A stretch of DNA of 64,000 nt, from positions 64,001-128,000 of IMG/VR virus record IMGVR_UViG_3300015171_000001; one strand, written 5' to 3'. Within the stretch, counting starts at the first letter, position 1, and every line of letters begins with the position of its first letter. Positions 16,020 through 53,078 of this stretch are shown piece after piece. The position numbers and the translations under genes are program-made. This stretch comes from a virus. The notes under the pieces are model-generated. The model had not been told where the DNA came from. It was given only the letters and a program-made list of their open reading frames with translations, and ran no database searches.

Positions 16020-17645
16020 ATGAGTATTAAGTCCTTATTAACAAACTCTAATTCTGCTCAAGATCGCTTGACTACAGAAACAAGAGCGTTACAATCAAAA
16101 TGGGCAAAGACTGGATTATTAGAAGGTTTATCAGAAATTGATAGATCTAATATGTCCGTGATCCTTGAAAATCAAGCTAAACAATTATTAGACGAAGCAA
16201 CCAGAACTGGTACTTCTGCAAATTCTGAACAATGGGCTGGCGTTGCTCTTCCATTAGTAAGACGTTTGTTCTCAGAAATCGCTTCTAAAGAATTCGTTTC
16301 AGTACAACCAATGAACCTTCCTTCGGGATTGGTATTCTATTTGGATTTCAAATATGGTACAAATCAAGCTGGTAATCCTGCTTTCTTGGGACAAAGCTTA
16401 TTCGGTGGAACAGGTATTAAACTTGGATCTACAGATTCAGCAGTAAATGGTCTTTATGGAACAGCACGTTATGGTTATTCAATGAATGATTATGTGAGTG
16501 CATCATTGTCATTAACAAGTGGTTCAGTATCATTTGATGATGTCGATTATAACTCTGCTTATAGTGCTTCAGCCATTGCTGGTCAATTAAGTAAAGTAAC
16601 TGTTGCTATCGGTGGAGACGCTGATCTTAATGGTGTTAGAGCATTTACTGTGTCTGGATCTGGTTTCTCAACCTATCTTCCACAATTCACAAAGGCTTCT
16701 AACGGTTTCGTAACATTCATTGTGTCAGGTTCTCCTTCCACAACCGCTACTGTTACTTATCAAGTTCAACCTGCTGACTTGTCAAGAGGTGACTTCGAAG
16801 ATAAAGCAACTGCTGCTGGTCCTGTTGGAAACAACTCTGGTGTTTATGCTGATATCGGCATTCCTGAAATTAACTTAGAAGTTAAGAGTGAAGCAATTGT
16901 TGCTAGGACACGTAAATTAAAAGCTGTTTGGACACCTGAACTTGCTCAAGATTTAAATGCTTATCACAGTATTGATGCTGAAGCTGAATTAACTGCTCTT
17001 CTTTCTGAGTATGTTGCTATGGAAGTTGACTTGGAAATTATTGACATGTTAGTTACTGCTGCTCCTGGACAAAACACAGAAGCTTGGAGTGCTATTATTG
17101 GTAATGAAATCATAAAGCAAGGCTACAATACAGATGGTAGTGCTACTTTCCAATATCAAGCTAACACAGCCACAAATCGTACTGCTTATGTAAAGTCCAC
17201 TTGGTATCAAACACTTGGTAACAAGATTCAAAAGGTATCTAACAATATTCACAAATTGACATTAAGAGGTGGTGCTAACTTCATCGTTTGTTCACCAGAT
17301 GTTGCTACTATTATCGAAAGTATTCCTGGATTCGTTCCTGATACTGATGGTGATAAGAGTAAATTTGCTATGGGCGTTGCTAAAGTTGGTGGTCTTTCAA
17401 ATCGTTGGACTATCTACAAGAATCCTTACATGACCGAGAACACCATGTTACTAGGATTCAGAGGAAACAACTTCTTTGAGTGTGGTGCTGTTTATAGCCC
17501 ATATATTCCATTGATTCAAACTCCATTAGTGTATGATCCTGTGAACTTTACACCTCGTAGAGGCGTGATGACTCGTTATGCAAAAAAGATGCTTAGACCG
17601 GAGTTCTTCGGCAAAATCTATGTAGGAGATTTAAATTATATCTAA
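16020..17645 (+). CDS. Major capsid protein (T4 gp23-like)
   Basis: ILENQ, LPLVRR, VSVQPMNLPSGLVFYL, ARTRKLKAVWTPELAQDLNAYHSIDAEAEL, YSPYIPL, FTPRRGVMTRYA. Confidence 0.96.
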   Translation: MSIKSLLTNSNSAQDRLTTETRALQSKWAKTGLLEGLSEIDRSNMSVILENQAKQLLDEATRTGTSANSEQWAGVALPLVRRLFSEIASKEFVSVQPMNLPSGLVFYLDFKYGTNQAGNPAFLGQSLFGGTGIKLGSTDSAVNGLYGTARYGYSMNDYVSASLSLTSGSVSFDDVDYNSAYSASAIAGQLSKVTVAIGGDADLNGVRAFTVSGSGFSTYLPQFTKASNGFVTFIVSGSPSTTATVTYQVQPADLSRGDFEDKATAAGPVGNNSGVYADIGIPEINLEVKSEAIVARTRKLKAVWTPELAQDLNAYHSIDAEAELTALLSEYVAMEVDLEIIDMLVTAAPGQNTEAWSAIIGNEIIKQGYNTDGSATFQYQANTATNRTAYVKSTWYQTLGNKIQKVSNNIHKLTLRGGANFIVCSPDVATIIESIPGFVPDTDGDKSKFAMGVAKVGGLSNRWTIYKNPYMTENTMLLGFRGNNFFECGAVYSPYIPLIQTPLVYDPVNFTPRRGVMTRYAKKMLRPEFFGKIYVGDLNYI

Positions 17646-17650
17646 TTGAT

Positions 17651-17667
17651 TATCAATTACTTATAAA
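17651..17667 (+). promoter_or_regulatory. Conserved 17-bp motif after the capsid gene (matches IHF consensus WATCAANNNNTTR)
   Basis: TATCAATTACTTATAAA; near-identical copies at 30908 and 50148. Confidence 0.55.
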
Positions 17668-17676
17668 CTGTTTTAT

Positions 17677-17709
17677 AAAAAAGAGCGATAGAAATATCGC
17701 TCTTTTTTT
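17677..17709 (+). terminator. Intrinsic terminator after the capsid gene
   Basis: AAAAAAGAGCGATA-GAAA-TATCGCTCTTTTTTT. Confidence 0.9.
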
Positions 17710-17738
17710 ATTTTTAACCACTTTCTAGGAATTTGTTA

Positions 17739-17767
17739 TTGACAAATTTTTTATATATTGATATAAT
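17739..17767 (+). promoter_or_regulatory. Consensus sigma70-type promoter; probably a leaderless transcript
   Basis: TTGACA-17 nt-TATAAT with extended TG; ATG 17773 follows 5 nt later. Confidence 0.85.
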
Positions 17768-17772
17768 AATAT

Positions 17773-20058: not shown

Positions 20059-20078
20059 TTGATTATATATATTAAATT

Positions 20079-21076: not shown

Positions 21077-21093
21077 TTCATATTTATTTTATT

Positions 21094-21381: not shown

Positions 21382-21385
21382 AATT

Positions 21386-21967: not shown

Positions 21968-21972
21968 TAGAT

Positions 21973-22306: not shown

Positions 22307-23608
22307 ATGCCACAAGATCCAACACCATATCCAGCAGACTTAAGGGTAAGATGGCCAGGAAGTGGCTCAAATCCTTCAGGATCGACTCCATTTGGATTTT
22401 ATGATGCTGATACTCAATTCCAATATTTAGCACCAAGGGCGGCATCCTGGGCAGCAAAAATGTTAGGTTATCCAATCATTGATGTTGAAATGTTAGATGT
22501 TAATTTCTATGCTTGTTTAGAAGGAGCTATTAATGAATATGGAAATCAAGTAAATCAATTTAATATTATTAATAATATTTCATTGTTACAAGGACTTCCC
22601 ACTACCACAACAGTTTCTGGTCAAAATATTCAAGGGATGGGATTGTCTCAACAAATACAATTAGCACAAGGTTATGGAACTGAGGCTGGTGTTGGTGGAT
22701 ATGTTAGTTGGAAAACTGGAAGTATTAGATTATATCATGGAATACAACAATATGATTTACAATCTTTATGGGGGGATGTAATAGAAAGTGGAAGTAGAAT
22801 AGAAATTAAAAGAATTTTCCATTATGCTCCACCAGCTTCTGCTAGAATTTATGATCCATTTTCTATGACCGGAATGAGTTATAGTAATATTATGAATGAG
22901 ATGGGATTTGCTGGATTCTCGCCAGCCACTCAATTCTTAATGACTCCAATATTCGAGGATTTATTAAGAATACAAGCTATTGAATTTAATGATACTGTTA
23001 GAAAAAGTGCATATTCTTTTGAATTAGTAAATAATAAAGTTAGAATATTTCCCATTCCTACATTTGGAGATGGTGCTGCTTATTGTCATCCGTCAAGTGG
23101 AAGTTGTGATGGTGGTTATGGCGAGTTTGGAGATGGATTTGATGATTTTGCTGATTATAATGATTGGTATTATGGAAAAAGACTTCATTTTGAATATATT
23201 GTTGTAAATGATAGAAATCTCGCTGATGCAAATTTATTTCCATCACAACAATCTAGTGGAAGTGTAATATCCGATTATAGTAATGTCCCATATCAAATAA
23301 TTCCTTTCTCAAATATAAATTCTCCCGGTCAACAATGGATTTACAAATATTTCTTAGCAAACTGCAAAGAAGTTTTGGGAGCCATAAGACAAAAATATCA
23401 AACTATTCCTGTTCCTGGCGCAGAAGTTACTTTAGATGGTGCAGAATTAAGACAAGAAGCATCTGCGGAAAAAGCAGAATTAATTACACAATTAAGAGAA
23501 AATTTAGAGGCCACTACTAGAAAAAGTCAATTATCCACACAATCTGAAGAAGCTGATCAATTACAAAATGTTCTAAAAAAGATTCCAACATTAATATATG
23601 TAGGTTAG
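22307..23608 (+). CDS. Neck / head-tail adaptor protein (T4 gp13-like)
   Basis: LGYPIIDVE, WIYKYFLANCKEVLGAIRQKY, VTLDGAELRQEA; first of three neck-module genes. Confidence 0.8.
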   Translation: MPQDPTPYPADLRVRWPGSGSNPSGSTPFGFYDADTQFQYLAPRAASWAAKMLGYPIIDVEMLDVNFYACLEGAINEYGNQVNQFNIINNISLLQGLPTTTTVSGQNIQGMGLSQQIQLAQGYGTEAGVGGYVSWKTGSIRLYHGIQQYDLQSLWGDVIESGSRIEIKRIFHYAPPASARIYDPFSMTGMSYSNIMNEMGFAGFSPATQFLMTPIFEDLLRIQAIEFNDTVRKSAYSFELVNNKVRIFPIPTFGDGAAYCHPSSGSCDGGYGEFGDGFDDFADYNDWYYGKRLHFEYIVVNDRNLADANLFPSQQSSGSVISDYSNVPYQIIPFSNINSPGQQWIYKYFLANCKEVLGAIRQKYQTIPVPGAEVTLDGAELRQEASAEKAELITQLRENLEATTRKSQLSTQSEEADQLQNVLKKIPTLIYVG

Positions 23609-25444: not shown

Positions 25445-27019
25445 ATGATTCCTAATAGTAAATTAAAGATTTCACAATTACCATTTGCCAGTGGAAGCGA
25501 AATTACTTTTAGTGATTCTATACATTTAATAAAATATCCTCAAAAAGAAGGTAAGCAAGCCTATCTATCAGATGTTCAATCTTTATTTGGAAGTAATTTC
25601 ACAGCATCTTATTGTATTACCGCCGCTTATGCATTAAATGGTGGAAGTGGAGGAACTAATGCTTCTTATGTTATAACTGCTTCTGGAGCTAACAGCAATC
25701 TTACAGCATCGTATGCATTGACGGCAAGTCATTTTAGTGGATTGTCCCCATCAGGAAATTATTCAACAACTATTGGAGATGGTGTTCACAATACATATAC
25801 TATAATTCATGGATTGAGAACAGTTGATATATTATATTCTGTATTTGATACCGGCACTTTGCAATTTGTGATTCCAAATGTTTCTATTATTGACACAAAC
25901 ACAATCTCTGTTCATTTTTTTAATATTCCTACTACAAATCAATTTAATATTACTGTTACTGCCGGAAACATAGTATTAAATAATAGTGGAAGTGGAAATT
26001 CTGTTTCAGCTTCTTATGCAACAACAGCATCTTATGCATTAAATGGTGGGGGAGGAACTAATGCTTCTTATGTTATAACTGCCTCTGGAGCTAATAGCAA
26101 TCTTACAGCATCCTACGCTTTAACAGCTAGTTTCTTTTCTGGAATGCTTTTAACAGGATCTTTTACAAAATTAATTGGAGATGGAATAAATAATACATTT
26201 ACAGTAGTTCATAATTTAAATACTACTAATTTATTATTTTCTATGTATGATGTAGGAACACTACAAATTGTTTACCCCAATATAAGTATTTTAAATGTTA
26301 ATAGTGTAATAGTAAAGTTTTTTTCAGTTCCGACCACAAACGAATTTAGTTTAACAATTTCAGCAGGAAACACAACTTTCGGTTCTGGAGCAGTAACAGC
26401 TTCTTATGCAACAACAGCATCTTATGCATTAAATGGTGGGGGAGGAACAACAAATACTGGATCGTTTGTTGTGACTGCATCTGGAACTTCTGGTAATTTA
26501 ACAGCATCATATGCATTAAATTCAGTAACCGCATCATATAGTTTAAATGGAAATATTAATACTGGTTCATTTGTTGTTACTGCGTCTGGTACTACAGGAA
26601 ACCTTACATCAAGTTATGCATTGACTGCTAGTTATTTTTCTGGAAATTTTTCGGGTTCATACACAACATTAATTGGTGATGGGGTTCACAATTCATATAC
26701 AATTACACATAATTTAGGAACAAAAAATTTATTATTTGCAATGTATGACACAGGAACTAATCAATTAATTACTCCAGATGTAACATTTATAGATAACAAT
26801 AATATATTAGTTTCTTTTGGTACTGTACCATCTACTAATGAATATAGTTTAACAATTTCTATAGGAAATGAAATTTTTATTACTAGCACATCTACATCTA
26901 GTTATCTTGCGCCATTTAATGGTTCTGGTTCTTTGACTGGAAGTGCTGGGTCAATTGCAACATTTCTATTTGTGAATATAAACGGAACTAATTATAAAAT
27001 GGCACTATATAATTTATAA
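25445..27019 (+). CDS. Repetitive virion fibre/decoration protein
   Basis: Three IGDG..H(G/N)L.T..(D)..T.Q...P domains separated by TASYAL repeats; KISQLP N-terminus. Confidence 0.7.
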   Translation: MIPNSKLKISQLPFASGSEITFSDSIHLIKYPQKEGKQAYLSDVQSLFGSNFTASYCITAAYALNGGSGGTNASYVITASGANSNLTASYALTASHFSGLSPSGNYSTTIGDGVHNTYTIIHGLRTVDILYSVFDTGTLQFVIPNVSIIDTNTISVHFFNIPTTNQFNITVTAGNIVLNNSGSGNSVSASYATTASYALNGGGGTNASYVITASGANSNLTASYALTASFFSGMLLTGSFTKLIGDGINNTFTVVHNLNTTNLLFSMYDVGTLQIVYPNISILNVNSVIVKFFSVPTTNEFSLTISAGNTTFGSGAVTASYATTASYALNGGGGTTNTGSFVVTASGTSGNLTASYALNSVTASYSLNGNINTGSFVVTASGTTGNLTSSYALTASYFSGNFSGSYTTLIGDGVHNSYTITHNLGTKNLLFAMYDTGTNQLITPDVTFIDNNNILVSFGTVPSTNEYSLTISIGNEIFITSTSTSSYLAPFNGSGSLTGSAGSIATFLFVNINGTNYKMALYNL

Positions 27020-27930: not shown

Positions 27931-30906
27931 ATGGCAACATCTCAAGACTTATCCTACAAACCAATTTCAAGACTAGTTTCTCCAATAGTGGCAACTAGAG
28001 AAATTGACCAATCTTTCCTTGCACAAGGGGTAGCAAATATTGGAGGTGCAATTGTTGGTCCTTTTGCTCAAGGACCTGGATTTACTCCAGTAACTGTAAC
28101 ATCTATTGCAGATTTTGAGGCACTTTTTGGTGTTCCAGATGGCACATATTATACACCATATACAGTTGAGCAATATTTGGCTCAAAGCAATATTGTTACT
28201 ATTGTGAGAACTGGTCAATTGGGTGGATATATTCAACAAAATCCAATATTGCTTCTTGCTCAAAGTGGTTCAACATCAAGACAGGCTGGATTGGGAATAT
28301 TTACTTCGTCTATTGGATATTGCACAATTACTACTGCTGGTGTGACTGGAAGTGTTACTGGCTCGGTTACTAGCACTTTCTTAAATGGTCCTCTTTCTGG
28401 AAGTTTATTCTCAATTCCAATTACTGCTTCTTTTGTTAGTGGAAGTGTTGGATATATAAGCGGAAGTTCAAAATTCTCATCTGGATCTATTCTTTATACA
28501 TTGCCAGCATCTACTGGAAATTTTGCAGGTAGCGTGTTTACTGCTTTTGTAAGTTCATCAACAGTTGGAAGTTCTATTAAATATAATATTCAAGGAAATA
28601 TTTCTGGAAGTTATGGTGCATTTATTCCAAATACATTCGTGGCTAATGGATCTACACCATTATTACTTGCAACATTAGCAAATTCTGCTTATGACTCCGC
28701 ACAAAATTTAAATGGATTTACGGGAAGTATATTAACTGCCGTAAATACTGGATCAATTGGTTCAGATTATTTCTTGTCACTAGCTGATTTAAATCCTATT
28801 ACATTAACTACATCAAGTTATGGAACTTATAGATTCTCATTAGATTCTACAAGTCCATCATGGTTAACTAATGTATTTAGCACAGATCCAACAGCAGGTG
28901 CAGTTGCGGTTGCTGCTGGTCAAAAAATAGATGCTGCTTATATTTATAATTATTTTGAAAATACAATTGATCAAGTTTTAGGATCGATGTTAACTAATGG
29001 AAATTATCAAGTAAAAATAGCAAATGCCGATGGTGTTTATTTTGATCCAGTTTCTTCACAATATTTACCAAATCAATCACTTAAATTTAGCGATGGTGTT
29101 CCCGGTGGTGGTGGTGGAGTAAATAATGTTGCTTGGAGTGCATATGACTTACGAGAAGCTGAAACCCCATGGATTAATTCTCAAAAAATCTCATCTTGGA
29201 GTGGCAGTGTTAGTCAATCATCTACAAGATATAATTTATTCAAAGTTCACACTCTTTCTGATGGAACTTCAACAAATACAAATTATAAAATACAAATTCA
29301 AAATGTTAAATTGGCTGGTCAAGTTCCAGGAAGTGATTATGGATTATTTGATCTTGTTGTGCGATCTTTTACAGATACAGACAGAAGACCATATGTACTT
29401 GAAAGATATTCTAATTTATCATTAGATCCATCTTCAGTAAATTATATCGCAAGAAGAATTGGAGATTCTTATAGTTCAATTGACTATAATGGAAAAATTT
29501 TACAATTTGGTACATATAATAATCAAAGTAAATATGTGAGAGTTGAAATGACTGTTTCTCCAATTCCAGTAACAGCAGTTCCTTATGGATTCGATTCTTA
29601 TGCAAGTCCTATTGGTGGTCAATATGCACATTCAATTCCATTGATGACATATACAAGTGCAAGTATTTATTCTAAACAACCAGGAAAATATTCAAGTGGT
29701 ATTGTTTTTCAACCTGCACCTGCTGGTGCTGATGCAGAATTATCCGCATTATATCCTGATGGTACTTCTCAAGGGGCTGAATTAGATAACTTACAATATT
29801 TTGCACCAATTCCAGAAAATTCAGTAACAGGAAATAATTATTTTGATTTAAATGATTTCTGTGGAATTCCTGCTGTATATAGTCCGTCTAATGAAAGTAC
29901 TAATATATTGATGAGAAATTTCACATTAGGATTTCAACAAGGATTTGACGGGGGTTCTCCTTCTATTCCTAAATTATTAGGAAATGATATTCTTCCTTCA
30001 AATACACAAGGATTAGACTGTACCTCAATTGTTTCCAGTGGAAGCGTTGCTTATAAAAATTGTTTAGATGCATTGTCAAATGCAGATGAATTTGATATTA
30101 ACTTATTAGCTACACCAGGAATTCTTTATAACTTACATCCGCATGTTGTAAACTTGGGGGTTAACATTTGTGAAAATCGTGGAGATGCATTTTATATCTT
30201 TGATATTTATGCAAATCAAACTGCTGGTGGAAACTCAATTGATAATGTTGTTTCTACTGCGGCTGAATTTGATACTAATTATGCAGCTACTTATTATCCT
30301 TGGATTAAAATAGTTGATACAAACACAAACCAAATAATAACAGTTCCTCCTTCAGTTGTGATGCCTTCTATTTACGCACAAAATGATAAAGTTGCTAATG
30401 AATGGAATGCACCTGCTGGTTTAAATCGTGGTGGAATTACTCAGGCTGTTGGTGTTGTTGATAGATTGACACAAACAGATCGTGATACATTATATGATGG
30501 CAGAGTTAATCCAATTGCTTCTTTTCCAGGAACTGGAATTGTTGCGTGGGGTCAAAAAACTCTTCAAGTATTGCCAAGTGCTCTTGATAGAGTAAATGTA
30601 AGAAGATTGTTGATTGCTCTTAAAAAGTTCATTGCAAGTTCTTCAAAGTATTTGTTATTTGAACAAAATGTCGCAACTACAAGAAATAAATTCTTAAGTA
30701 TTGTTAATCCTTATCTTGAAAGTGTTGTGCAACGTAATGGTTTATACGCATTCAGAGTTCAAATGGATGCCAATAATAATACGGCTGCATTAATAGATCA
30801 AAATATATTATATGGTAACATATTTTTACAGCCAACCAAATCCATAGAAATAATTTTACTTGATTTCCGTGTACTTCCTAGTGGAGCCGTGTTCCCAAAT
30901 GACTAA
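27931..30906 (+). CDS. Contractile tail sheath protein (T4 gp18-like)
   Basis: REIDQSF, GAIVGPFAQGP, YAATYYPWIKI, WNAPAGLNRG, RVNPIASF, WGQKTLQ, LDRVNVRRLL. Confidence 0.95.
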   Translation: MATSQDLSYKPISRLVSPIVATREIDQSFLAQGVANIGGAIVGPFAQGPGFTPVTVTSIADFEALFGVPDGTYYTPYTVEQYLAQSNIVTIVRTGQLGGYIQQNPILLLAQSGSTSRQAGLGIFTSSIGYCTITTAGVTGSVTGSVTSTFLNGPLSGSLFSIPITASFVSGSVGYISGSSKFSSGSILYTLPASTGNFAGSVFTAFVSSSTVGSSIKYNIQGNISGSYGAFIPNTFVANGSTPLLLATLANSAYDSAQNLNGFTGSILTAVNTGSIGSDYFLSLADLNPITLTTSSYGTYRFSLDSTSPSWLTNVFSTDPTAGAVAVAAGQKIDAAYIYNYFENTIDQVLGSMLTNGNYQVKIANADGVYFDPVSSQYLPNQSLKFSDGVPGGGGGVNNVAWSAYDLREAETPWINSQKISSWSGSVSQSSTRYNLFKVHTLSDGTSTNTNYKIQIQNVKLAGQVPGSDYGLFDLVVRSFTDTDRRPYVLERYSNLSLDPSSVNYIARRIGDSYSSIDYNGKILQFGTYNNQSKYVRVEMTVSPIPVTAVPYGFDSYASPIGGQYAHSIPLMTYTSASIYSKQPGKYSSGIVFQPAPAGADAELSALYPDGTSQGAELDNLQYFAPIPENSVTGNNYFDLNDFCGIPAVYSPSNESTNILMRNFTLGFQQGFDGGSPSIPKLLGNDILPSNTQGLDCTSIVSSGSVAYKNCLDALSNADEFDINLLATPGILYNLHPHVVNLGVNICENRGDAFYIFDIYANQTAGGNSIDNVVSTAAEFDTNYAATYYPWIKIVDTNTNQIITVPPSVVMPSIYAQNDKVANEWNAPAGLNRGGITQAVGVVDRLTQTDRDTLYDGRVNPIASFPGTGIVAWGQKTLQVLPSALDRVNVRRLLIALKKFIASSSKYLLFEQNVATTRNKFLSIVNPYLESVVQRNGLYAFRVQMDANNNTAALIDQNILYGNIFLQPTKSIEIILLDFRVLPSGAVFPND

Positions 30907-36500: not shown

Positions 36501-37782
36501 TGGTTCATTTACTGGATCATTATTAGGATCTTCATCATATTCCATAACTTCTAGTTATTCTTCTACAAGCAATATATCAAATACTGCCAGTTATAATTTA
36601 AATTCAATTAGTGCATCTTATTCACAAAATTCAGACACATCATCTTTTTCAAATAATTTATTTGTCTCTGGAAATTTATTTATATTAAATTCTTCTTCAT
36701 TTGATAGCGGGTCGTTTATAACTGATGGAAGGGGAAATGTTTCAGGATCTTCATTTACAGGATCATTTAATGGAGTATTTACTGGAAGTTTATTTGGCAC
36801 ATCCTCAAATTCAATTAGTGCATCATATTGTGTTAATTCTATAACAGCTTCTTATGCATTAAATTCTAATAATAGCATAACTTCTAGCTATGCATCGAGT
36901 TCAATATCATCTTCTTTTTCACAAACAGCATCATATGTACTGAATGCAGTAGGTTTAAATAGTGGTTCTTTTACAGGAAGTTTTACTGGATCATTATTAG
37001 GTTCTTCAAGTTATTCAATAACAAGCGCATATTCATTAACTTCGAGCTATTTAAATACAACAATAATAGGAATTCAAGATTTTATTGATTTATTAAGTAC
37101 AGGATCTATTCTTGGTAATAACAATCAAATTATATCAAGTTCCTTATCAAATATTATTGGTTATAATAATTATATTTTATTGTCTCCATCTAGTTCCACT
37201 ATTGGATTTAATAATTCAATGAGTTTTGCGAGTAGGTCCTTCATAGTAGGAAATGGTAATAATATAAGTTCTGGAAGTAGTATTCATATATTTGGAAGTT
37301 CAAATAACATAACAACCGCAAGTAATTCTTATGTATTTGGACATAATATAACATTAACAAATATATCTAATTTAAATTATTTTACTGGAAGTACGCGGTT
37401 GGATGGTGGAATGGTTAAAACCGATGGATTTGGAAATGTATCGGGATCATCTTTTACAGGTTCATTTAATGGAAATTTAATAGGAACTGCCTCATATTCT
37501 AATTCATCAAGTTATGCATTCACATCTTCTTATGCATTAAATGCAGTGGGATTAAATACTGGCAGTTTTACTGGCAGTTTTACTGGATTAATGACTGGAA
37601 GTTATACAGGATCATTTACTGGATCATTCACGGGGTCTTTCACCGGAAGTTTATTGGGAACGGCTTCTTATGCATTAAACTCTAATAATAGTACATCTTC
37701 TTCTTTTTCACAAACATCTAGTTATTTTATTAGTCAATCTATACTAAACAATAATGCAATGTATTACGCAATAGCCCTTTAA
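33589..37782 (+). CDS. Giant Ser/Thr/Gly-rich repetitive fibre-like virion protein
   Basis: Dozens of GSFTGS and T(A/S)SYALN repeats; GSNIFG...THQFTGS domain. Confidence 0.75.
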   Translation: MSIYIPNQTTIAGNLTVQGSITASYIQGTASYVQGTSSYSTIANSASYASSSTLSQTSSYALNAVGLNSGSFTGSFTGSILGTSSFSNSSSYAFNSNLSQTSSYNLNSISSSYSLNSTTASYALNAVGLNSGSFTGSFSGSLLGTSSYSLLSLSSSYASSSTISQTASYVLNSISASYSQNALTASYALNAIGLNSGSFTGSFIGSLLGTSSYSTIANSSSYASSSTLSQTSSYALNAIGLNTGSFTGSFTGSLLGSSSYALNSNNSITASYASSSISSSFSQTSSYTNGGATTGSNSFVGNQTITGNLNVIGTASISVIYTNYITASTEYSTGSNIFGNSQANTHQFTGSVYITGSLTSPNITGSLLGTSSYATFSNSSSYASSSTLSQTSSYNLNSVSSSFSTTASYALNAVGLNSGSFTGSFTGSINGSSSYSSNSNNSISSSFASSSISSSYTATASISYNVSGSGTGSFTGSFSGTHTGSYTGSYTGSFTGSFTGSLSGTSSYSITSSYALNAVGLNSGSFTGSFTGSHTGSFNGSMTGSHTGSFTGSYTGSFIGNHTGSYTGSFNGLMSGSSTGSFTGSYTGSFTGSFLGTSSFSLVAGNSTTSSYALNAVGLNTGSFTGSFTGSLLGSSSYSLNSNNSISSSYASSSVSSSFSQTSSIGYNVSGSGTGSFTGSFTGSFTGIITGSLQGTSSFSFNSVTASYILGGATVSSASYATFASNGSGSFTGSFSGSLTGTSSYATFANSASYASSSTLSQTSSYNLNSVSSSYSQTSSTSSYALNALNLNTGSFTGSFTGSLLGTSSYSIISLSGSYASSSTLSQTSSYNLNSVSSSFSNNSINSLTSSYASSSISSSFSQTSSISYNVSGSGSGSFTGSFTGSLLGTSSYALNSLTSSYSINSTTASYALNGGSSSTGSFTGSFTGSLLGTSSYSLISLSSSYASSSTLSQTSSYALNAVGLNSGSFTGSFTGSLLGSSSYSITSSYSSTSNISNTASYNLNSISASYSQNSDTSSFSNNLFVSGNLFILNSSSFDSGSFITDGRGNVSGSSFTGSFNGVFTGSLFGTSSNSISASYCVNSITASYALNSNNSITSSYASSSISSSFSQTASYVLNAVGLNSGSFTGSFTGSLLGSSSYSITSAYSLTSSYLNTTIIGIQDFIDLLSTGSILGNNNQIISSSLSNIIGYNNYILLSPSSSTIGFNNSMSFASRSFIVGNGNNISSGSSIHIFGSSNNITTASNSYVFGHNITLTNISNLNYFTGSTRLDGGMVKTDGFGNVSGSSFTGSFNGNLIGTASYSNSSSYAFTSSYALNAVGLNTGSFTGSFTGLMTGSYTGSFTGSFTGSFTGSLLGTASYALNSNNSTSSSFSQTSSYFISQSILNNNAMYYAIAL

Positions 37783-37792: not shown

Positions 37793-39217
37793 ATGAGAAT
37801 CGTCATCAAAGATTATACCTTTAACAAAACATCAGGAACTATAACTTTCTCTGATTATACAACAATAACACAAGAAAATATATTCTTAATTGTTGATGCT
37901 ACAAATAATACAATAATATATCAAACTAATGCTAGTGGATTTGGTGGTACTGTTTCTGGTAATGTATTAACATTAATATATAATACAAATACATCTGCAT
38001 TCAATAACACAGACAAATTACAAATTTTTTATGAAGACACCACACCAGTGCAGCTTGTTAGTGGATCTTCGAGTGTTGTAATAAAAAACACTCAGCCAGA
38101 TGGCACGGAAAATGGGTTGCTTGTCAGACCTACAGGAAATACAAGGACTGTTACAGGGTCTTTAACAAATGGACAATTTTTGCAAATTGCTACTGCGGAT
38201 TTGGGTGGATTGGGAATAAATGTCAACGGATTGACTGGGTCTCTTTCTGTTTCAGCATCGGTAGACAGTATTAATTTTTCTTCACTTGGATTATTTTCTT
38301 TTTCTGGAGGAACGGGATCAGCTATAATATCGTTAAATGGAAATTACGAATGTTCCATTGGAAATACAAAAGTTGTACAAATTACAGCAGATAATGTTAC
38401 CGGATCTGTCAACTTAACAATGGTTGATACTCTATGGTCAAGACTTACAAAAGTATATCAATCCACTGCTGCTAATTTACAAACTGTTTCTTGGTTGTCT
38501 GATAGCTCTGGGAAGGGGATTACTAGTAATAGTGGATCATTAAATGTTTTTGTCAGCGGATCTATATTAGCAGCAAATGCTGCACAAGAAAATGGAAATT
38601 TGGCACTTATATTATCCGCATCAAATCAAAGTACTTCTTCTTTATTTCAAATATCATCTTCATTATCTAGTCTTGTTGGATTAAATAATATATATGGACA
38701 AAAACAAATGGTTAGTAGCAGTGCTGTCGTTATTGCTTCTGATCAAACCCCAATATCTATATCAACAGTATCTACGGCGTCGTCATTTACTCCGTTAATA
38801 ACTAGTGGATCTGCATACACTGCCAATCAATTATGTGGATCGGGATCTATGTTATTCACAAATGTCATAAGAAATAATTCCGGTCTATTAGAATCTATTT
38901 ATATTAATTGCAAATCTGTACAAACCACCGGACTTAAATTTTATGCATTTAATTCAAATCCGTCCAGCACAACCTGGAATGATAAAAGTGCGCCTTCAAT
39001 TAATGCGGCAGATTTTAATAAATTAATAGGGGTTTATTCTTTAAGTAGTCCAGATAGCGGATTAGGAACTCATACAAATTATTGTTTAGACGGTATTGGA
39101 AAATCTTTTTATATTTCAGGAAGTACATCATTATATGGTGTTTTAGTTGTGACAGGAACTCCTACATTTTTTAGTACATCAGATTTAATAATAACTCTAA
39201 ATATAGTAGAAGATTGA
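37793..39217 (+). CDS. Putative tail/fibre-associated structural protein
   Basis: N-terminal YTF...LTLIYNT...DKLQIFYE domain; S/T/G rich; within the fibre cluster. Confidence 0.6.
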   Translation: MRIVIKDYTFNKTSGTITFSDYTTITQENIFLIVDATNNTIIYQTNASGFGGTVSGNVLTLIYNTNTSAFNNTDKLQIFYEDTTPVQLVSGSSSVVIKNTQPDGTENGLLVRPTGNTRTVTGSLTNGQFLQIATADLGGLGINVNGLTGSLSVSASVDSINFSSLGLFSFSGGTGSAIISLNGNYECSIGNTKVVQITADNVTGSVNLTMVDTLWSRLTKVYQSTAANLQTVSWLSDSSGKGITSNSGSLNVFVSGSILAANAAQENGNLALILSASNQSTSSLFQISSSLSSLVGLNNIYGQKQMVSSSAVVIASDQTPISISTVSTASSFTPLITSGSAYTANQLCGSGSMLFTNVIRNNSGLLESIYINCKSVQTTGLKFYAFNSNPSSTTWNDKSAPSINAADFNKLIGVYSLSSPDSGLGTHTNYCLDGIGKSFYISGSTSLYGVLVVTGTPTFFSTSDLIITLNIVED

Positions 39218-39220
39218 TTT

Positions 39221-41863
39221 ATGTTATTTTCGGCACTCAGAAGATCATTGCTGATAGGCAAAGTGAATATTTTGTCTGGACTTTACGCACTAAATAGTGC
39301 TGTTACTCCATTTACCATGTCTTCGGTAATATCTGGAAATAACGTATTAACAAAATCGGGAATCGGAGCCATATCTTTAACTAATAACAATAATTCTTTT
39401 TCAAAAGGAATTGCTGTTTCATCGGGAATATTGGGAGGAACAAATTCTAATTGTTTGGGAAGTGGAACTGCTAGTATCTCAAAAAATGCACAGATACAGT
39501 TAGATTGTGGACAAGGTTCTTATACCTCAAGCATTCCGGCGTTTAATGGAAGTGGATCGTTGTTAATTACTGGGAATAACCAAATTCAAATCCAAAACAC
39601 AATAAATGGATTTTCGGGGGGAACTTTTGTTCTGGGGGGTGCAACATTAAATACTCCTCCCAATACATCAATTGCGTCTATTTTAGGGACAGGACAACTT
39701 TTTATAGATTCTGGGTCTGTTGTGAATATTAATTCACAAAATAACGGATTAAATGCAGGAAACACTCTTCTGTTCAGCGGAGTGTCTGGTTCTGGTACTA
39801 TTAATTTTAATGGAACCACAGGTGGGAATACTATACAAACCAAGCAAGTGAGTTCTAGTTTATTTGTCGGTACTATAAATATTAATCCTTCGGGGACTTC
39901 TGGTGTTGGAAAAACACAATTAAATTTTACATTAAATCCTTCCGCGTCTATTAATGTAGGAACTAATGGAACTTTATATGTCGTGAATGGAAATAATTTC
40001 CCAGGAAATATTATTTTAAATGGCGGAACTACTGGGGAGACATTGGGACAATTAAGGATAGAAACTTCTGGATCAAATATAACGGGAAATGTCATTCTTA
40101 GTGGAAGTGTGTCTACGGGAACAATTGGAAATAATGTTACCGGGGTAACGGTGATGATAAGCGGGCCTATTGTTGGAAATTTTAGATTAATCAAGACTGG
40201 CCCTGGGACAATTATATTTGGAGGCGGAAATACATATACTGGCGGAAGTAATGCAGCAAATCAAGGAACACTTATAAATCAAGGAGTTATAGTGGCAACT
40301 ACATTAAATAGTGTGACTGGAAGTGTTTCCTCTTCTAGTTTTGGAGTACCTACTTCGCCATCTGCAGGAACTATAAATTTGGGAAATGCTACATTGACAG
40401 GAAATTTAATAGTTATTAGTCCAGGAGAAACTACCGATAGAATTGTGAATTTGGGAGGATCTACTGGTGGTGGGGCTATATATAATAGCGGATCTGGATA
40501 TTTGAAATTTACAAGCGATCTTTCAATCACAGGAAACGGGACAAAAAGTTTTACTATGGGCGGTACGGGTCCTATGGAATTTGTGGGGGCGATAAGTGAT
40601 AATAGCCCTACAAACAAAACATATGTTACGAAATCAAATGCAAATACGGTAACACTTTCTGGGAATAATACATATACAGGAAATACACAACTATTAGGAG
40701 GGACATTAATGTTGGGAAGTGGAACTGCACTAGGTTCTGCTTCAAACAGTTGTTCTATAAATTTAAGTTCTTCTTTAGATTTAAATGGCCAAACAATATT
40801 GAATAATATTTTTACAACAGGAGCAACTCCAACAATAACAAATTCAAGTTCTTCAACGGCAACCATAAATTCAACAATTACTAATGGAAATGCCCCAATT
40901 TTTATTAGTGGTAGTAGTGGTAATATAGTATTACAAACAGTTACAGGAACTAGTGGATTAACTATTACAAAAAATGGAACAAATACTTTAATATTATCCG
41001 GTTCTTCAGATAATGCATTTTGTGCATTAAAAATAAATAACGGACTTGTTGTGTTAAATAAATCTGGATCAGGACATTCTTCTAACAATTTAACCTTGAT
41101 AAGTGGGACGGTGCAGTTTGGATCTAATAATGTTTCATTGTTAACAGGAACTGGTCAGTTGGCCACAACAACTATACATGGCGGAACATTTGATTTAAGT
41201 GGATCTACTGGAAACAATACCACATTAGGGTCTTTGAGTGGAAGTGGTGGTATTATAACAAATAATGGGTCTGTATCTTCTACACTGACTATTGGAGGAA
41301 ATAATGGTGGCGGAGCTAATTATGCAGGAACTCTTCAGAATGGAACAAATACATTATTTTTAACAAAAATAGGAACTGCGGCAATAACTATGTCTGGAAA
41401 TAGTACCCATACAGGATCGACTAGTATAACAGGAGGAGAACTACAAATTAACGGTTCTTTTAGTGGATCTACTATATTAATAAATGGAGGAAGATTGAGT
41501 GGGACGGGTTCGGTGGGTAGTGTAATTTTATCAAATACCGCAAATTCAGTAATTGTTGGGGGTCTTGGTACTGGAAGTTTTGGGTCATTACTTATGACTG
41601 GGTCTTTATATTTTTCAGGGTCTACTTGTGCGTTGGATGTGTATGGAAATGGGTCAACGGCGGCATCTTCAATAGCTGTTAGTGGATCTACTACATTGAA
41701 CAGTGCCACTATTAATTTTTTACAAACATTAAACACTGGGACTTATAATTTAATAACAAATACAGTATCGTGCGCGGGGCTAACTACAATAGGAACTAAT
41801 AATACTGGACATACCCCATCATGTTCAATAGTTGGGAATAATTTAATTGCTACGATAACATAA
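39221..41863 (+). CDS. Beta-helical protein with autotransporter passenger-associated (PATR-like) repeats
   Basis: LIKTGPGTIIFGGGNTYTGG, TKSNANTVTLSGNNTYTGNTQLLGGTL, LTKIGTAAITMSGNSTHTGSTSITGGEL; no beta-barrel. Confidence 0.75.
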   Translation: MLFSALRRSLLIGKVNILSGLYALNSAVTPFTMSSVISGNNVLTKSGIGAISLTNNNNSFSKGIAVSSGILGGTNSNCLGSGTASISKNAQIQLDCGQGSYTSSIPAFNGSGSLLITGNNQIQIQNTINGFSGGTFVLGGATLNTPPNTSIASILGTGQLFIDSGSVVNINSQNNGLNAGNTLLFSGVSGSGTINFNGTTGGNTIQTKQVSSSLFVGTININPSGTSGVGKTQLNFTLNPSASINVGTNGTLYVVNGNNFPGNIILNGGTTGETLGQLRIETSGSNITGNVILSGSVSTGTIGNNVTGVTVMISGPIVGNFRLIKTGPGTIIFGGGNTYTGGSNAANQGTLINQGVIVATTLNSVTGSVSSSSFGVPTSPSAGTINLGNATLTGNLIVISPGETTDRIVNLGGSTGGGAIYNSGSGYLKFTSDLSITGNGTKSFTMGGTGPMEFVGAISDNSPTNKTYVTKSNANTVTLSGNNTYTGNTQLLGGTLMLGSGTALGSASNSCSINLSSSLDLNGQTILNNIFTTGATPTITNSSSSTATINSTITNGNAPIFISGSSGNIVLQTVTGTSGLTITKNGTNTLILSGSSDNAFCALKINNGLVVLNKSGSGHSSNNLTLISGTVQFGSNNVSLLTGTGQLATTTIHGGTFDLSGSTGNNTTLGSLSGSGGIITNNGSVSSTLTIGGNNGGGANYAGTLQNGTNTLFLTKIGTAAITMSGNSTHTGSTSITGGELQINGSFSGSTILINGGRLSGTGSVGSVILSNTANSVIVGGLGTGSFGSLLMTGSLYFSGSTCALDVYGNGSTAASSIAVSGSTTLNSATINFLQTLNTGTYNLITNTVSCAGLTTIGTNNTGHTPSCSIVGNNLIATIT

Positions 41864-49523: not shown

Positions 49524-49639
49524 ATATGTGTTTAGTTCTAATATAGCCAATATATTACTCTATTTTTCAAAACATGTCTATTTATTTTAATAATTATTAT
49601 TTATAATAGAACAAACAACTAAATTAACTTGACAAATAT

Positions 49640-50128
49640 ATGGCACAACTGATAGAATCCAATGAAATATTCTTTACGGCATTCGAGCCAAAAGTGAGTA
49701 ACCGCTTTATCATGTACATTGATGGAGTACCTGCTTTCTTGATCAAAGGCGTAAAAAGACCCTCAATCAATCTTAACACAATAAAACTAGACCACATCAA
49801 CATTTATCGTAAATTAAAAGGTAAAGCAGAGTGGGAAGATGTGTCTTTAACTTTGTACGATCCCGTATCACCATCTGGCGCACAAACAGTAATGGAATGG
49901 ATTAGATTATCACACGAATCGGTGTCGGGCCGAGATGGGTATGGGGACTTCTATAAAAAGGATGTATCTATTCAAGTATTAGGTCCCGTGGGAGATGTTG
50001 TAGAAGAATGGACCCTTAAGGGGGCCTTTGTGTCTGCTGCTGAATTTGGAGAACTTAATTGGGAAACCGGCGATCCAATCATGATTAATGTAACGCTCTC
50101 GATGGATTATTGCATACTTCAATTCTAG
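49640..50128 (+). CDS. Tail tube protein (T4 gp19-like)
   Basis: FEPKVSNRF, GKAEWEDVSLTLYDP, VMEW, YKKD, GDVVEEWTLKGAF. Confidence 0.92.
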   Translation: MAQLIESNEIFFTAFEPKVSNRFIMYIDGVPAFLIKGVKRPSINLNTIKLDHINIYRKLKGKAEWEDVSLTLYDPVSPSGAQTVMEWIRLSHESVSGRDGYGDFYKKDVSIQVLGPVGDVVEEWTLKGAFVSAAEFGELNWETGDPIMINVTLSMDYCILQF

Positions 50129-50491: not shown

Positions 50492-50692
50492 AGATGGTTA
50501 TCCAAATTTATATACTCCGAAATTTATTTTAGAAAACAAATATTAAAACAAAAATTATCCATATTTGATAAAGATCTTACTGAATGGGGAAACATGAAAT
50601 TGAATGGATATGATAGAATTTTGGACTGTGGCAATATTAAATACGAAATGATTTTTAATAGATTAATTCTATACTCTCATATATTTATATGA
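50492..50692 (+). pseudogene. C-terminal remnant of a Hef-like endonuclease
   Basis: Frame with no upstream start reading FRKQILKQKLSIFDKDLTEWGNMKLNGYDRILDCGN, matching FDENLSEWENMRNNNWDRIWDCGD of 48030..49523. Confidence 0.75.
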
Positions 50693-50696
50693 ACAT

Positions 50697-51950
50697 ATGC
50701 CATTATTATCGTATTATTCTATATTGTCTGGAGGAAAAATAATTTCAATTATATCTGGTGGAGGAAATGGGGTGACATTTAGCCCAACCAACTCTGGAGC
50801 CAATATTACACTTCATAACGGCAATATCACTGCCACCGACACAGTTAACTCAACTAATAGGGCGATGTCGTATCTTACAAGTACAATAACTAACTTACAA
50901 AAGGTGTACCTAGAGTTTACTGTAAATATAGCAGGGTCCACAGTTGGTTCTCCTTATATTCCTCCAATTATAGGTGTATCAGATAACATCACACTCAACA
51001 ATACAGCATATCCAGGAGGTTTCTCAAATGGTTTTGGCATAGAAGGAGGGAATGGAGGTCAATTTAGTGGCACTGTATCAGAACCATCCGGTAATCCGAC
51101 AATAACAATGGCAAATGGAGATGTGATAGGATTGGCTATTAACGGTGTGACTGGAAATATATGGCTTAGTAAAAATGGCACGTATGTTTTATCAGGAAAT
51201 CCAGCAACAGCGACCAGTCCATCTTTTAATTTCTCGCCACCTCCGTCAAATTATTATCCATGTGTGGGGTTAATATCAGACGGCACCAACGCAGGTAATA
51301 TAAGTTTGAATTCAATATTAATTTACACCCCTCCTAGTGGATTTGTTTCTTTGACAGCAGCAACTCCCGTAATAGCTTTTGATGGAGCACACACTAATAT
51401 ACAAGGCATATTGACAAGTTCAGAATCGGTATTTGCAATGCAATCAGTTGGTGGATATATAAATTCCTTTATAAACTATGGAGCATCTAGTGGCAAAAGG
51501 TACATAGAATTTAAGATTCTATGTACTAATAGCGTCACTTGCGCAGTGGGAGCATCTACTTCCAGAAATTTAACCACTCAAATTGGGAATGTTGCCAATG
51601 GGTTTGCGGTTTATAATGCAGGCAGTGGAATAGGACAAACTGGACTTACTAACGACAATAACGCACCTTCCTACACTACTAATGACGTAGCAATGATAGC
51701 AGTTGATTTCTCATTAGGATACGCTTGGTACGGAAAAAATGGAACTTGGTTAACAAATACTGGAGGTGTTGGCAATCCAGTTTCTGGAACAAACCCATCA
51801 TTTAATGGGGCGAATTTACAATCTGGTACTTGGTATCCTGGTGCAACTGTATCTGCCGGGACATCTACTCCTATAGTCCAAGTATACGCCCCTGCTTCTT
51901 CCTGGAATTATACTCGCCCCACAGGATTCTTAGGTTGGGACGGAAGTTAA
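50697..51950 (+). CDS. Tandem SPRY/ConA-like domain protein, putative receptor-binding or decoration protein
   Basis: KVYLEF...GDVIGLAIN..GNIWLSKNGT and GKRYIEF...DVAMIAVDF..GYAWYGKNGTW; visibly more GC-rich than its neighbours. Confidence 0.7.
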   Translation: MPLLSYYSILSGGKIISIISGGGNGVTFSPTNSGANITLHNGNITATDTVNSTNRAMSYLTSTITNLQKVYLEFTVNIAGSTVGSPYIPPIIGVSDNITLNNTAYPGGFSNGFGIEGGNGGQFSGTVSEPSGNPTITMANGDVIGLAINGVTGNIWLSKNGTYVLSGNPATATSPSFNFSPPPSNYYPCVGLISDGTNAGNISLNSILIYTPPSGFVSLTAATPVIAFDGAHTNIQGILTSSESVFAMQSVGGYINSFINYGASSGKRYIEFKILCTNSVTCAVGASTSRNLTTQIGNVANGFAVYNAGSGIGQTGLTNDNNAPSYTTNDVAMIAVDFSLGYAWYGKNGTWLTNTGGVGNPVSGTNPSFNGANLQSGTWYPGATVSAGTSTPIVQVYAPASSWNYTRPTGFLGWDGS

Positions 51951-52016
51951 TAAATTAAATTAAATTGGAAAAATTTTTATATTTAAAATTTAATTAGTAT
52001 TCTATTTATTTAGATA

Positions 52017-53078
52017 ATGATAAAGAAAAAGGTTTTATTTATTTTAAAAAGTAGAGAAGAGCCATTTTCAAAGAACGAAGAAATAACTTCGAAAAAGCAA
52101 TTAAGTAGTGGATTATTTAATTCTGCTAATTTTGTTAATACATTTTTACAATCCTCCGAAGAATTTGAAAGTAAATTAGTACATGTTAATGACAATAATT
52201 GCATTGATAGAGAAGTTTATTTATATAGACCCGACATTGTTATTATTGAGGCATATTGGGTAGTGCCGGAAAAATTCGAAATTCTCCAAAAGCTACATCC
52301 AAAGGTAAAATGGATAATTAGAAATCATAGTGAGGTAGCTTTTTTAGCAAATGAGGGAATTGCATTTGATTGGAGCATTCGGTATGTAAATTATGATAAT
52401 GTATATTTGTCTTGTAATGCAAAACAGACATATTTAGATTTTGTAAATATTTTAGAGAATGTTTATGTAGATAAAAAAGATATTAAGAATAAAGTTTTAT
52501 ATCTTCCTAATACATACCCGATTGATTTTTGTGGTATAAGTACTAAACAGAAAGAATCGTTGGATATAAGCTGTTTTGGAGCGATTAGACCATTAAAGAA
52601 TCACATGGTTCAAGTTATTGCCGCAATTAGATTTGCAAACATGTTAAATATGTCTTTAAATTTTCATATTAATGATGGAAGAATTGAAATGAAGGGGGAT
52701 AATATATTAAAAAATATTAAATCTGTATTTAATAAATGTTCACGGCATAAATTAATAGAACATGATTGGATGGATCATTCTAAATTTAAAAAGGTTATAA
52801 AAAATATAGATATTGGATTACAGGTATCCTATACAGAGACATTTAATATTGTTGCGGCAGACCATGTTTCCTCTGGAGTTCCTGTTGTTGCAAGTAATAA
52901 TGTTCCTTGGTTATTAGGAGATTTTCCATATTACGAGAATGACTCGACATTAATTGCTGATAAATTATTTGATGTTTATAATAATAAAGAGTCATATTTA
53001 ATTCACCAACAAAATAGATTAAAAGGTTGGAATGATAATAGTGAAAATATTTGGAAACAAATATTATCTAATATATAA
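52017..53078 (+). CDS. Glycosyltransferase (GT-B, GT4-like)
   Basis: PDIVIIE, IIRNHSE, CFGAIRPLKN, QVSYTETFNIVAADHVSSGVPVV. Confidence 0.75.
   Translation: MIKKKVLFILKSREEPFSKNEEITSKKQLSSGLFNSANFVNTFLQSSEEFESKLVHVNDNNCIDREVYLYRPDIVIIEAYWVVPEKFEILQKLHPKVKWIIRNHSEVAFLANEGIAFDWSIRYVNYDNVYLSCNAKQTYLDFVNILENVYVDKKDIKNKVLYLPNTYPIDFCGISTKQKESLDISCFGAIRPLKNHMVQVIAAIRFANMLNMSLNFHINDGRIEMKGDNILKNIKSVFNKCSRHKLIEHDWMDHSKFKKVIKNIDIGLQVSYTETFNIVAADHVSSGVPVVASNNVPWLLGDFPYYENDSTLIADKLFDVYNNKESYLIHQQNRLKGWNDNSENIWKQILSNI

Follow-up and report, generated by a model that had tools for sequence, protein, structure and literature searches.

The structural genes of this AT-rich, T4-like phage raise the question of why a single tripeptide pattern, [ST][GA]S, recurs throughout its outer particle proteins, and whether it marks positions at which sugars are attached to the virion. 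The window, a stretch of 64,000 nucleotides that was analysed as a whole, comes from a contig (G000) that is 67% complete; three complete uncultured relatives are referred to as G001, G002 and G003. The initial annotation had read the pattern as a modification sequon, gained convergently by unrelated surface proteins and served by a glycosyltransferase gene within the same structural module. The following eight window proteins carry it:

16020..17645, + strand: major capsid protein of the Gp23 family (Pfam Gp23 at 1.6e-72)
22307..23608, + strand: neck/head-completion-like protein of 433 aa with six copies
25445..27019, + strand: fibre-like protein of 524 aa, its PHROG matches being virion/tail fibre families
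27931..30906, + strand: tail sheath of 991 aa, with Pfam sheath domains at 40-93 and 710-980
31903..32448, + strand: small fibre/decoration-like protein of 181 aa, a paralogue of the 25445 C-terminus
33589..37782, + strand: serine-rich fibre of 1397 aa (31% Ser), with a paralogue at genome 27049-28467(-)
37793..39217, + strand: p474, with 13 copies
39221..41863, + strand: PATR (autotransporter-passenger-like beta-helix repeat) protein (Pfam PATR at 3.2e-12)

These proteins contain 200 copies against a composition-shuffle mean of 52.9, a stronger excess than had been claimed, while the remaining 45 window ORFs contain 15 against 14.2 expected. The terminase, portal, protease, scaffold-region proteins, tail tube and the glycosyltransferase itself have 0-2 copies each, and homologues of the terminase, portal, protease, scaffold and tube carry the pattern at or below expectation, in agreement with the proposed restriction to outer virion proteins, which in G000 and its relatives carry Ser/Thr-Gly/Ala-Ser at about 3 times expectation. 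The excess persisted when shuffling was confined to blocks of 40, 20 or 10 residues, and neither [GA]S[ST] nor [ST]S[GA] nor other patterns of the same composition were enriched by it. An unbiased scan of all tripeptides, with four repetitive fibres left out, placed SGS first (73 versus 23.8, z = 10) and TGS second among over-represented tripeptides. The motif codons draw on all Ser, Gly and Thr codons in near-background proportions, and such a mixture indicates selection at the protein level, excluding a DNA repeat effect. Two further proteins from the tail region are informative by their lack of copies:

49640..50128, + strand: tail tube protein, buried in the particle (PHROG tail tube at 1.4e-29)
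50697..51950, + strand: SPRY-domain protein (Pfam SPRY), directly upstream of the glycosyltransferase gene

The tail tube has 0 copies and its eight homologues 0 versus 1.4 expected. The SPRY protein is S/G/T-rich yet has 0 copies versus 2.3 expected, making it an internal negative control.

Among the carriers, the neck-like protein holds 6 copies versus 0.7 (p<0.0005) and its 56 homologues 213 versus 40; the label "neck" derives from one weak match, to the PHROG 211 adaptor family over the C-terminus only. The sheath holds 14 versus 3.6, with 11 of the 14 in an inserted region at about residues 110-290, and sheath homologues hold 32 versus 9.6. Counts for the remaining tail and fibre proteins are 24 versus 3.7 for fibre 25445 (mostly in TASYAL-type internal repeats), 5 versus 1.5 for fibre 31903, 111 versus 31.6 for fibre 33589, 22 versus 7.4 for the PATR protein and 13 versus 3.0 for p474, whose excess withstands local shuffles and for which Pfam and PHROG searches gave no match. 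The carriers had been described as non-homologous. This is true of at least 12 families that are mutually unrelated by BLAST, but not of all fibres: the C-terminal domain of 25445 is common to 31903, so that these two are paralogues, as are 33589 and the gene at genome 27049-28467.

The excess is a lineage trait. Genome-wide observed/expected ratios were 3.1 for G000, 2.1 for G001, 2.7 for G002, 2.5 for G003, 2.0 for immuto, 2.1 for Mel-JY01 and 2.2 for RM378, and even in the very divergent RM378 SGS and TGS are among the top 7 tripeptides. It is not present in T4 (0.81), LR756511 (1.15) or LR756508 (1.39), and G011 is likewise motif-poor (1.26). Rather than lacking any glycosyltransferase, the motif-rich relatives all carry a conserved cluster different from the window's gene, comprising a pair of GT4 enzymes of about 460 and 420 aa (GT459+GT421) accompanied by variable sugar-nucleotide genes. 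The pair was found in 6/6 motif-rich relatives and was missing or incomplete in 4/4 motif-poor genomes, an association that holds in 10/10 genomes but corresponds to no more than one or two transitions in evolution, and the order in which RM378, LR756508 and Mel-JY01 branch is not resolved in the capsid tree. A clamp-loader gene precedes the cluster in the relatives, and the pair was not seen on the incomplete G000 contig, which ends about 1 kb past its clamp-loader gene.

When seven genomes grouped as pair-bearing were compared with four pair-less ones, the position specificity turned out to be sharp, as anticipated for a sequon. In the seven pair-bearing genomes, only x=S was enriched in [ST]-G-x (2.7x), only S (3.05x) and T (2.27x) in x-G-S, and G (2.7x) and A (1.9x) in [ST]-x-S, whereas Asn and Asp, equally suited to turns, were flat. 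The four pair-less genomes were flat throughout the same test. The excess is genuine, and from these sequence patterns it looks like an enzyme recognition site.

We tentatively favour, at a little under even likelihood, the explanation that [ST][GA]S is an O-glycosylation acceptor motif served by enzymes of the lineage, both the sugar attachment and the enzyme being inferred. A more specific version, to which we lean somewhat more cautiously, is that [ST]-G-S is a true O-glycosylation sequon read by the lineage-conserved GT4 pair, with virions coated in phage-made glycans. [ST]-G-S, with [ST]-A-S as a weaker form and in most cases with hydrophobic flanks, is a lineage-wide signature under protein-level selection in exposed beta-rich parts of the particle (the insertion domain of the capsid, the neck, the outer domains of the sheath, the baseplate proteins and the fibres). 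Under this model, the motif serines would be acceptors for cytoplasmic O-glycosylation of particle proteins by the GT4 pair and its variable sugar-nucleotide genes, to which Mel-JY01 would have added a TibC-type protein O-heptosyltransferase.

Several observations on the pair bear on this model. It sits in the replication region beside a nuclease gene, outside the late genes, which counts against a role in glycosylating particles; a late-promoter-like motif precedes it in G002 only. Its absence from G000 as far as that contig extends, and the few transitions behind its association with the motif, likewise weigh against the model. The best solved relative of GT459 is the chlorovirus protein B736L (PDB 3OY2, E = 3.9e-9). 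In Mel-JY01, a gene at 4747-8430, immediately following two motif-rich fibre genes, encodes a GT421-like domain fused to a protein whose homology to TibC is demonstrated at the level of sequence (PDB 4RAP, E = 1e-69), with D110, T226, K230, W305 and four Cys retained and R286 not aligned. Searches for TibC/GT9 (PF01075) gave no match in the incomplete G000, in G001-G003, in immuto or in RM378. A role as T4-type DNA glucosyltransferases was considered and is not supported. The thymidylate synthase/hydroxymethylase family PF00303, expected for a hydroxymethyl-pyrimidine pathway, had no match in G002, G003 or G000, the last being weak evidence given the incomplete contig. The DNA of immuto, analysed by LC-MS, consists of dA, dC, dT and fdPreQ1 with no sugars (PMC10516641), indicating that its glycosyltransferase cluster does not glycosylate DNA.

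The rival with the most weight, which we consider a real possibility if a doubtful one, is purely structural: hydrophobic-[ST]-G-S-hydrophobic would be a strand-end or tight-turn element that is inherited, kept by folding and left unmodified. The capsid provides evidence for it. Its five copies (versus 1.5 expected), starting at residues 160, 167, 182, 212 and 236, all lie within the insertion domain, and in 79 homologues every motif column falls at residues 123-276. Site 182 is retained in 67/79 homologues and site 212 in 60/79, with the Gly of site 212 nearly invariant (76/79). In the AF2 model, where the insertion domain is confidently predicted (pLDDT 80-88), site 182 belongs to a helix, and sites 160, 212 and 236 are positioned where strands end or hairpins turn. 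Small residues (AAG, SGD, SAG) still occupy site 212 in the pair-less relatives. Convergent gain, as originally proposed, holds only in part: in the capsid family the excess stems from about six inherited conserved columns and sporadic gains are no commoner than those of control patterns. That the capsid excess resides in a few conserved columns, with Gly 212 near-invariant and sites at strand ends and turns, fits a structural element and argues against glycosylation. The enrichment of V/I/Y/F at position -1 and V/L/A/F at +3 also favours the structural reading, and such hydrophobic flanks suggest that part of the motif sites are partly buried, a further point against glycosylation. In the fibres, the same reading invokes an amphipathic beta repeat of four residues, one of its faces carrying Ser/Thr and the opposite one Gly/Phe, and in fibre 33589, 70/111 copies do fall within tandem runs of the tetrapeptide [ST]GS-x, x being mostly Phe. 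What this explanation fails to account for is the Ser-only third position, from which Thr, Asn and Asp are excluded, and the rank of SGS as the top tripeptide of the proteome. Moreover, the motif is common to about a dozen unrelated families within a single lineage, whereas T4, LR756511 and LR756508 have the same folds without it.

Comparison with known systems places the glycosylation model in context. In mycobacteriophages, according to Freeman et al. 2023 as cited in PMC12619734, phage-encoded glycosyltransferases modify virions, with glycans shown chemically at the C-termini of the subunits that form capsid and tail tube. The likeness lies in phage glycosyltransferases, exposed virion proteins as proposed acceptors and a proposed glycan coat. 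However, the motif here occupies internal positions, within insertion domains and fibres (capsid copies at residues 160-238 of 541), and does not occur in the tail tube. The candidate enzymes are unrelated, belonging to GT4, and the glycans themselves are predicted. TibC O-heptosylates serines on beta-helix adhesins, and the bacterial autotransporter heptosyltransferases TibC/AAH act on TibA and AIDA-I (PMC4358343). What is proposed here resembles this system, in which numerous serines in the loops of PATR-type beta-helical proteins are O-glycosylated in the cytoplasm; the Mel-JY01 homologue lies beside fibre genes and the window encodes a PATR protein rich in the motif. It differs in that the six other genomes named above gave no TibC/GT9 match, and no [ST]GS consensus has been described for TibC. 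In GtfA/GtfB O-GlcNAcylation, similarly, the Ser residues of S-x-S-type repeats are the target of an enzyme with a GT4 fold, the acceptors being serine-rich fibrillar adhesins that recall fibre 33589, but the best solved relative of the lineage pair is B736L and not GtfA/B. Chlorovirus capsid glycosylation also employs virus-encoded glycosyltransferases and sugar-nucleotide genes, among them the GT4 enzyme B736L of NY-2A; it differs in its eukaryotic host, capsid lineage and sequons. We know of no established function for B736L itself.

A less probable explanation, which we regard as unlikely, is that the tripeptide has another function, either a different enzymatic modification or recognition by an assembly factor or ligand, and that the glycosyltransferases of the lineage act on host envelope glycans. 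Sugar clusters like these in aquatic phages are commonly attributed to host surface changes. The specificity of the motif is sharp and enzyme-like; radical SAM/SPASM, amidotransferase and carbamoyltransferase genes lie among the G000 fibre genes, and ART-like paralogues at 42619-46987. However, no candidate enzyme follows the motif across genomes in the way the GT4 pair does, and no tested result favours a specific alternative.

This leaves the gene to which the motif had originally been linked:

52017..53078, + strand: GT-B fold, GT4-like glycosyltransferase (AF2 and Foldseek)

The assignment as a GT-B enzyme in the tail gene region was borne out. The AF2 model (pLDDT 89.8, pTM 0.88) has two Rossmann-like domains in GT-B topology, and Foldseek matched SenB, GtfA, MshA and BshA at E values of 1e-11 to 1e-9, these together with HepE and TarM at probability 1.0 and TM 0.6-0.7. 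The match to the protein O-GlcNAc transferase GtfA (4PQG, E = 3e-10) is generic to GT4, and no GtfB-like partner lies next to the gene. An alignment of 34 homologues shows E274 and D282 to be invariant, with an E-x7-D spacing as against the E-x7-E type motif. The protein scores 17.9 bits against Pfam Glycos_transf_1, below the curated cut-off of 26.4, and some homologues of about 47% identity carry PF00534/PF13692. By its predicted structure it is thus a true GT-B (GT4-like) enzyme. The gene has the tail tube gene (49640) on one side and the baseplate hub genes (57077) on the other and begins 66 nt after the SPRY gene, which has the late-promoter-like motif TATTTATA 15 nt upstream, and it is probably expressed late. 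Its family counts more than 4300 homologues and extends to over 30 unrelated phages, G011 included, whose GC contents span 32-62% and in which there is neither synteny nor a nearby motif excess. Judged by this distribution, the gene is a horizontally mobile accessory among large phages, unlinked to the motif. That this enzyme reads the tripeptide and coats the virion is very improbable despite its fold, conserved residues and position, because its family was not found in motif-rich G001, G002, G003, immuto, Mel-JY01 or RM378 (positive controls being detected) and is present in motif-poor phages, while the adjacent SPRY protein is free of the motif and G000 has at least three further glycosyltransferases (GT2, GT8 and GT32-like) in an island among fibre genes. 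Its role would at most be to extend a glycan or to act on a different acceptor.

To our knowledge, glycosylation of phage particle proteins is established chemically for a few mycobacteriophages only, and it has no known sequence rule. In the lineage studied here, of which three members are in culture and which is common in metagenomes from water, the exposed parts of almost every outer particle protein are marked by a rule of three residues whose sharpness resembles that of an enzyme. Were the serines to remain unmodified, a lineage-specific, proteome-wide preference would still need a structural explanation. If the glycosylation model is true, capsid, neck, sheath, baseplate and fibres would be glycan-coated across a widespread aquatic and thermophilic T4-like lineage comprising immuto, Mel-JY01, RM378 and hundreds of uncultured relatives. 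The tripeptide would then represent the first sequon for phage virion glycosylation, making glycan-coated phages predictable from sequence, and would have consequences for adsorption and stability and for how grazers or immune systems recognise the particles.

We tallied the tripeptide [ST][GA]S, whose core form is [ST]GS, in each ORF of the window against 2000 composition shuffles. The eight proteins named as carriers in the initial annotation (capsid 16020, neck-like protein 22307, fibres 25445, 31903 and 33589, sheath 27931, protein 37793 and the PATR protein 39221, each labelled by its start coordinate in the window) hold 200 copies versus 52.9 expected, while the remaining 45 ORFs hold 15 versus 14.2, confirming the claimed excess beyond composition. 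The excess persists after shuffling within blocks of 40, 20 or 10 residues, and none of the five alternative arrangements of these residue classes shows enrichment, ruling out composition or local low complexity as the cause. Ser, Thr and Gly codons are all used at the motif in proportions near background; this mixed usage indicates that selection is on the protein and not on a DNA word, and rules out an origin by slippage or a repeated oligonucleotide. When all 8000 tripeptides were scanned with four repetitive fibres left out, SGS ranked first (73 versus 23.8) and TGS second (43 versus 17.1). The whole genome under study (G000) contains 350 copies versus 111 expected, the additional carriers beyond the window being baseplate and fibre-like proteins. 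The motif is flanked by hydrophobic residues (V/I/Y/F on the N-terminal side, V/L/A/F on the C-terminal side). Fibre 33589 has 111 copies, of which 70 fall in tandem [ST]GS-x runs.

The motif had also been described as recurring in non-homologous proteins. This holds for the non-fibre carriers, which fall into at least 12 families without BLAST relation to one another, but not for the fibre carriers, which are paralogous and internally repetitive. A common inserted domain behind all carriers is ruled out, since among 18 motif-rich proteins BLAST detected no more than four pairs of paralogues. The SPRY-domain protein adjoining the glycosyltransferase gene 52017 lacks the motif altogether despite a high S, G and T content; it may lie inside the particle or not be a virion protein.

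The window covers positions 64001-128000 of a single viral contig 157,280 bases long (G+C 27.8%; completeness 67% by CheckV), and the source phage is a T4-like myophage with the following genes.

Window 16020-17645, Gp23-family capsid protein
Window 27931-30906, sheath
Window 49640-50128, tail tube
Window 50697-51950, SPRY-domain protein
Window 52017-53078, plus strand, glycosyltransferase 52017
Window 57077-58857, baseplate hub genes
Upstream in the window, terminase and portal genes

The closest named capsid relatives are Flavobacterium phage immuto, Microcystis phage Mel-JY01 and the uncultured LR756508 (51-52% identity), with Rhodothermus phage RM378 next in rank (37%). The portal (1406 aa, 4588-8808), terminase (1017 aa, 1106-4159) and prohead protease (559 aa, 10605-12284) ORFs exceed the usual length by far, and this, together with the HNH-endonuclease, helicase-like or thymidylate-synthase-like segments found in them, suggests inteins or other insertions. 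Three homing/HNH endonuclease genes lie among the structural genes (17773-19773, 31003-31731 and 48030-49550 on the minus strand), one of them immediately 3' of the capsid gene. Window 42619-46987, after the PATR gene and before that of the tail tube, encodes an ATPase/kinase-like protein followed by four divergent PHROG 12810 paralogues.

Among homologues the motif is in excess in capsid (78 from IMG/VR; 359 observed versus 104 expected), neck (n=56; 213 versus 40) and sheath proteins (32 versus 9.6), and is at or under expectation in homologues of terminase, portal, protease, scaffold and tube. Even in RM378, SGS is 3rd and TGS 7th in rank among 4628 tripeptides, and the capsid, neck and sheath proteins of LR756508 carry the motif at the expected level. 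A general trait of T4-like structural proteins is ruled out by T4 itself, which lacks an SGS excess and has a ratio below one; the motif excess is a lineage trait.

Observed/expected [ST][GA]S ratio, whole genome unless stated
G000 (genome under study), 3.1
G001 (complete uncultured relative), 2.1
G002 (complete uncultured relative), 2.7
G003 (complete uncultured relative), 2.5
Immuto, 2.0
Mel-JY01, 2.1
RM378, 2.2
T4, 0.81
LR756511, 1.15 (135 kb sampled)
LR756508, 1.39
G011 (genome carrying the 52017 family), 1.26

All motif columns of the capsid protein lie within its insertion domain (residues 123-276). Established knowledge of gp23 and gp18 would place both this domain and the domains inserted in the sheath on the outer side. 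Site 182 is conserved in 67 of 79 sequences (S74-A69-S76) and site 212 in 60 of 79 ([S46/T23]-G76-[S61/T12]). The capsid-family excess stems from six conserved columns, and sporadic motif columns are at control level (36 versus 34-46 for control patterns); therefore, the convergent gain proposed initially is seen between families and not inside one. The AF2 capsid model is confident in the insertion domain only (pLDDT 80-88); the whole-capsid model is poor (pLDDT 51), and a fold search with it gave no match. In the modelled insertion domain, copies 160, 212 and 236 sit where a strand gives way to a hairpin turn, copy 167 at a strand end, and copy 182 within a helix. The placements of 160, 212 and 236 favour a strong rival reading, that of a purely structural motif for strand ends and turns, which we regard as a real but somewhat doubtful possibility. 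By contrast, Asn and Asp are flat in the seven enriched genomes although they suit tight turns equally well. In these genomes only Ser (3.05x) and Thr (2.27x) are enriched at position 1, Gly (2.7x) then Ala (1.9x) at position 2, and only Ser (2.7x) at position 3, where Thr (1.46x) is at control level; every motif position is flat in the four unenriched genomes.

The initial annotation had proposed the motif as a candidate glycosylation sequon and linked it to the GT-B enzyme 52017. Pfam matches of 52017 were under threshold and its sequence matched no solved structure, but a confident model built from 34 homologues (pLDDT 89.8) matches GT-B-fold GT4 enzymes (SenB, GtfA, MshA, BshA, HepE and TarM), so that its assignment as a GT-B glycosyltransferase stands. 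E274 and D282 are invariant in these 34 homologues. Its role as reader of the motif was not borne out. The same search that recovers the family in G000 and G011 did not find it in T4 or in the motif-rich G001-G003, immuto and Mel-JY01, and RM378 was also negative by tblastn; thus the expected co-occurrence of gene and motif fails. The family has over 4300 members, and 33 of its loci in IMG/VR, from phages of 32-62% G+C, showed neither common neighbours nor nearby motif excess. Elsewhere in the genome, motif-rich fibre genes flank an island of enzyme genes (11757-25358; loci L001 and L002, ~11.7-26 kb) that comprises two radical SAM/SPASM genes, an AsnB-like amidotransferase, a carbamoyltransferase and GT2, GT8 and GT32-like genes.

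The T4 late promoter TATAAATA is not in use in G000. The top enriched upstream word is TATTTATA (extended form ATATTTATA), likely a late-promoter variant of it, which precedes 22 mostly structural genes and likewise stands before mostly structural genes in G001-G003. It lies 38 nt before 27931, 11 nt before 33589 and 15 nt before the SPRY gene 50697. Since 52017 starts 66 nt 3' of the SPRY gene, its late expression is plausible.

A different pair of glycosyltransferases tracks the motif. All complete relatives share a run of a PD-(D/E)XK nuclease, GT459 (~460 aa, GT4) and GT421 (~420 aa, GT4-like), in this order in G001-G003, immuto, Mel-JY01 and RM378 (for example L139:18512 to L140:12711 among these genomes); in RM378 the GT459-GT421 pair is p013 and p014. 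Variable sugar-nucleotide genes follow 3' (epimerase/dehydratase, GT2, Glyco_trans_1_2, HAD-nucleotidyltransferase and C-methyltransferase, with aminotransferases in immuto), and TATTTATA before the pair is inconsistent among genomes. Identity with GtfA/GtfB is ruled out, the best solved relative being chlorovirus B736L. Neither gene was found in T4, LR756511 or G011, and in LR756508 the search yielded an intact GT459-like gene (32% identity) and no GT421. The six pair-bearing genomes are enriched (at least 2.0x) and the four pair-less genomes are not (at most 1.4x). In the capsid tree one clade is supported (97), with the order of RM378, LR756508 and Mel-JY01 unsettled at its base, so that one or two transitions underlie the association. 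Relatives have the cluster downstream of a clamp-loader gene, whose G000 homologue (genome 155347-156297) is ~1 kb from the contig end; the G000 pair may therefore lie just off the contig, and a search for a pair-bearing fragment linkable to it gave no match.

DNA is an unlikely target of these enzymes, because immuto DNA was shown by LC-MS to have canonical dA, dC and dT with fdPreQ1 in place of dG, glycosylated bases not being found (PMC10516641), which rules out DNA glycosylation as the role of the cluster in immuto, and because no thymidylate-synthase-like hydroxymethylase was found in G002, G003 or the incomplete G000. In Mel-JY01, a 1227-aa protein (PP395634.1 4747-8430, locus L188) directly follows two motif-rich fibre genes, one a collagen-repeat fibre. 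It joins an N-terminal GT421-like GT4 domain to a full TibC-type autotransporter heptosyltransferase module: over the C-terminal 377 residues it matches the protein O-heptosyltransferase TibC (4RAP, E = 1e-69), with the four iron-binding Cys, the catalytic Asp and three of the four residues that bind sugar all conserved. In beta-helical autotransporter adhesins, TibC glycosylates serines that lie in loops (PMC4358343). The module was found in none of the remaining genomes, and literature on Mel-JY01 and phiRSL1-type glycosyltransferases was uninformative. Taken together, the initial interpretation is partly supported: the enzyme next door is not the reader of the motif, and a putative modification sequon is, tentatively, the best single reading of it.
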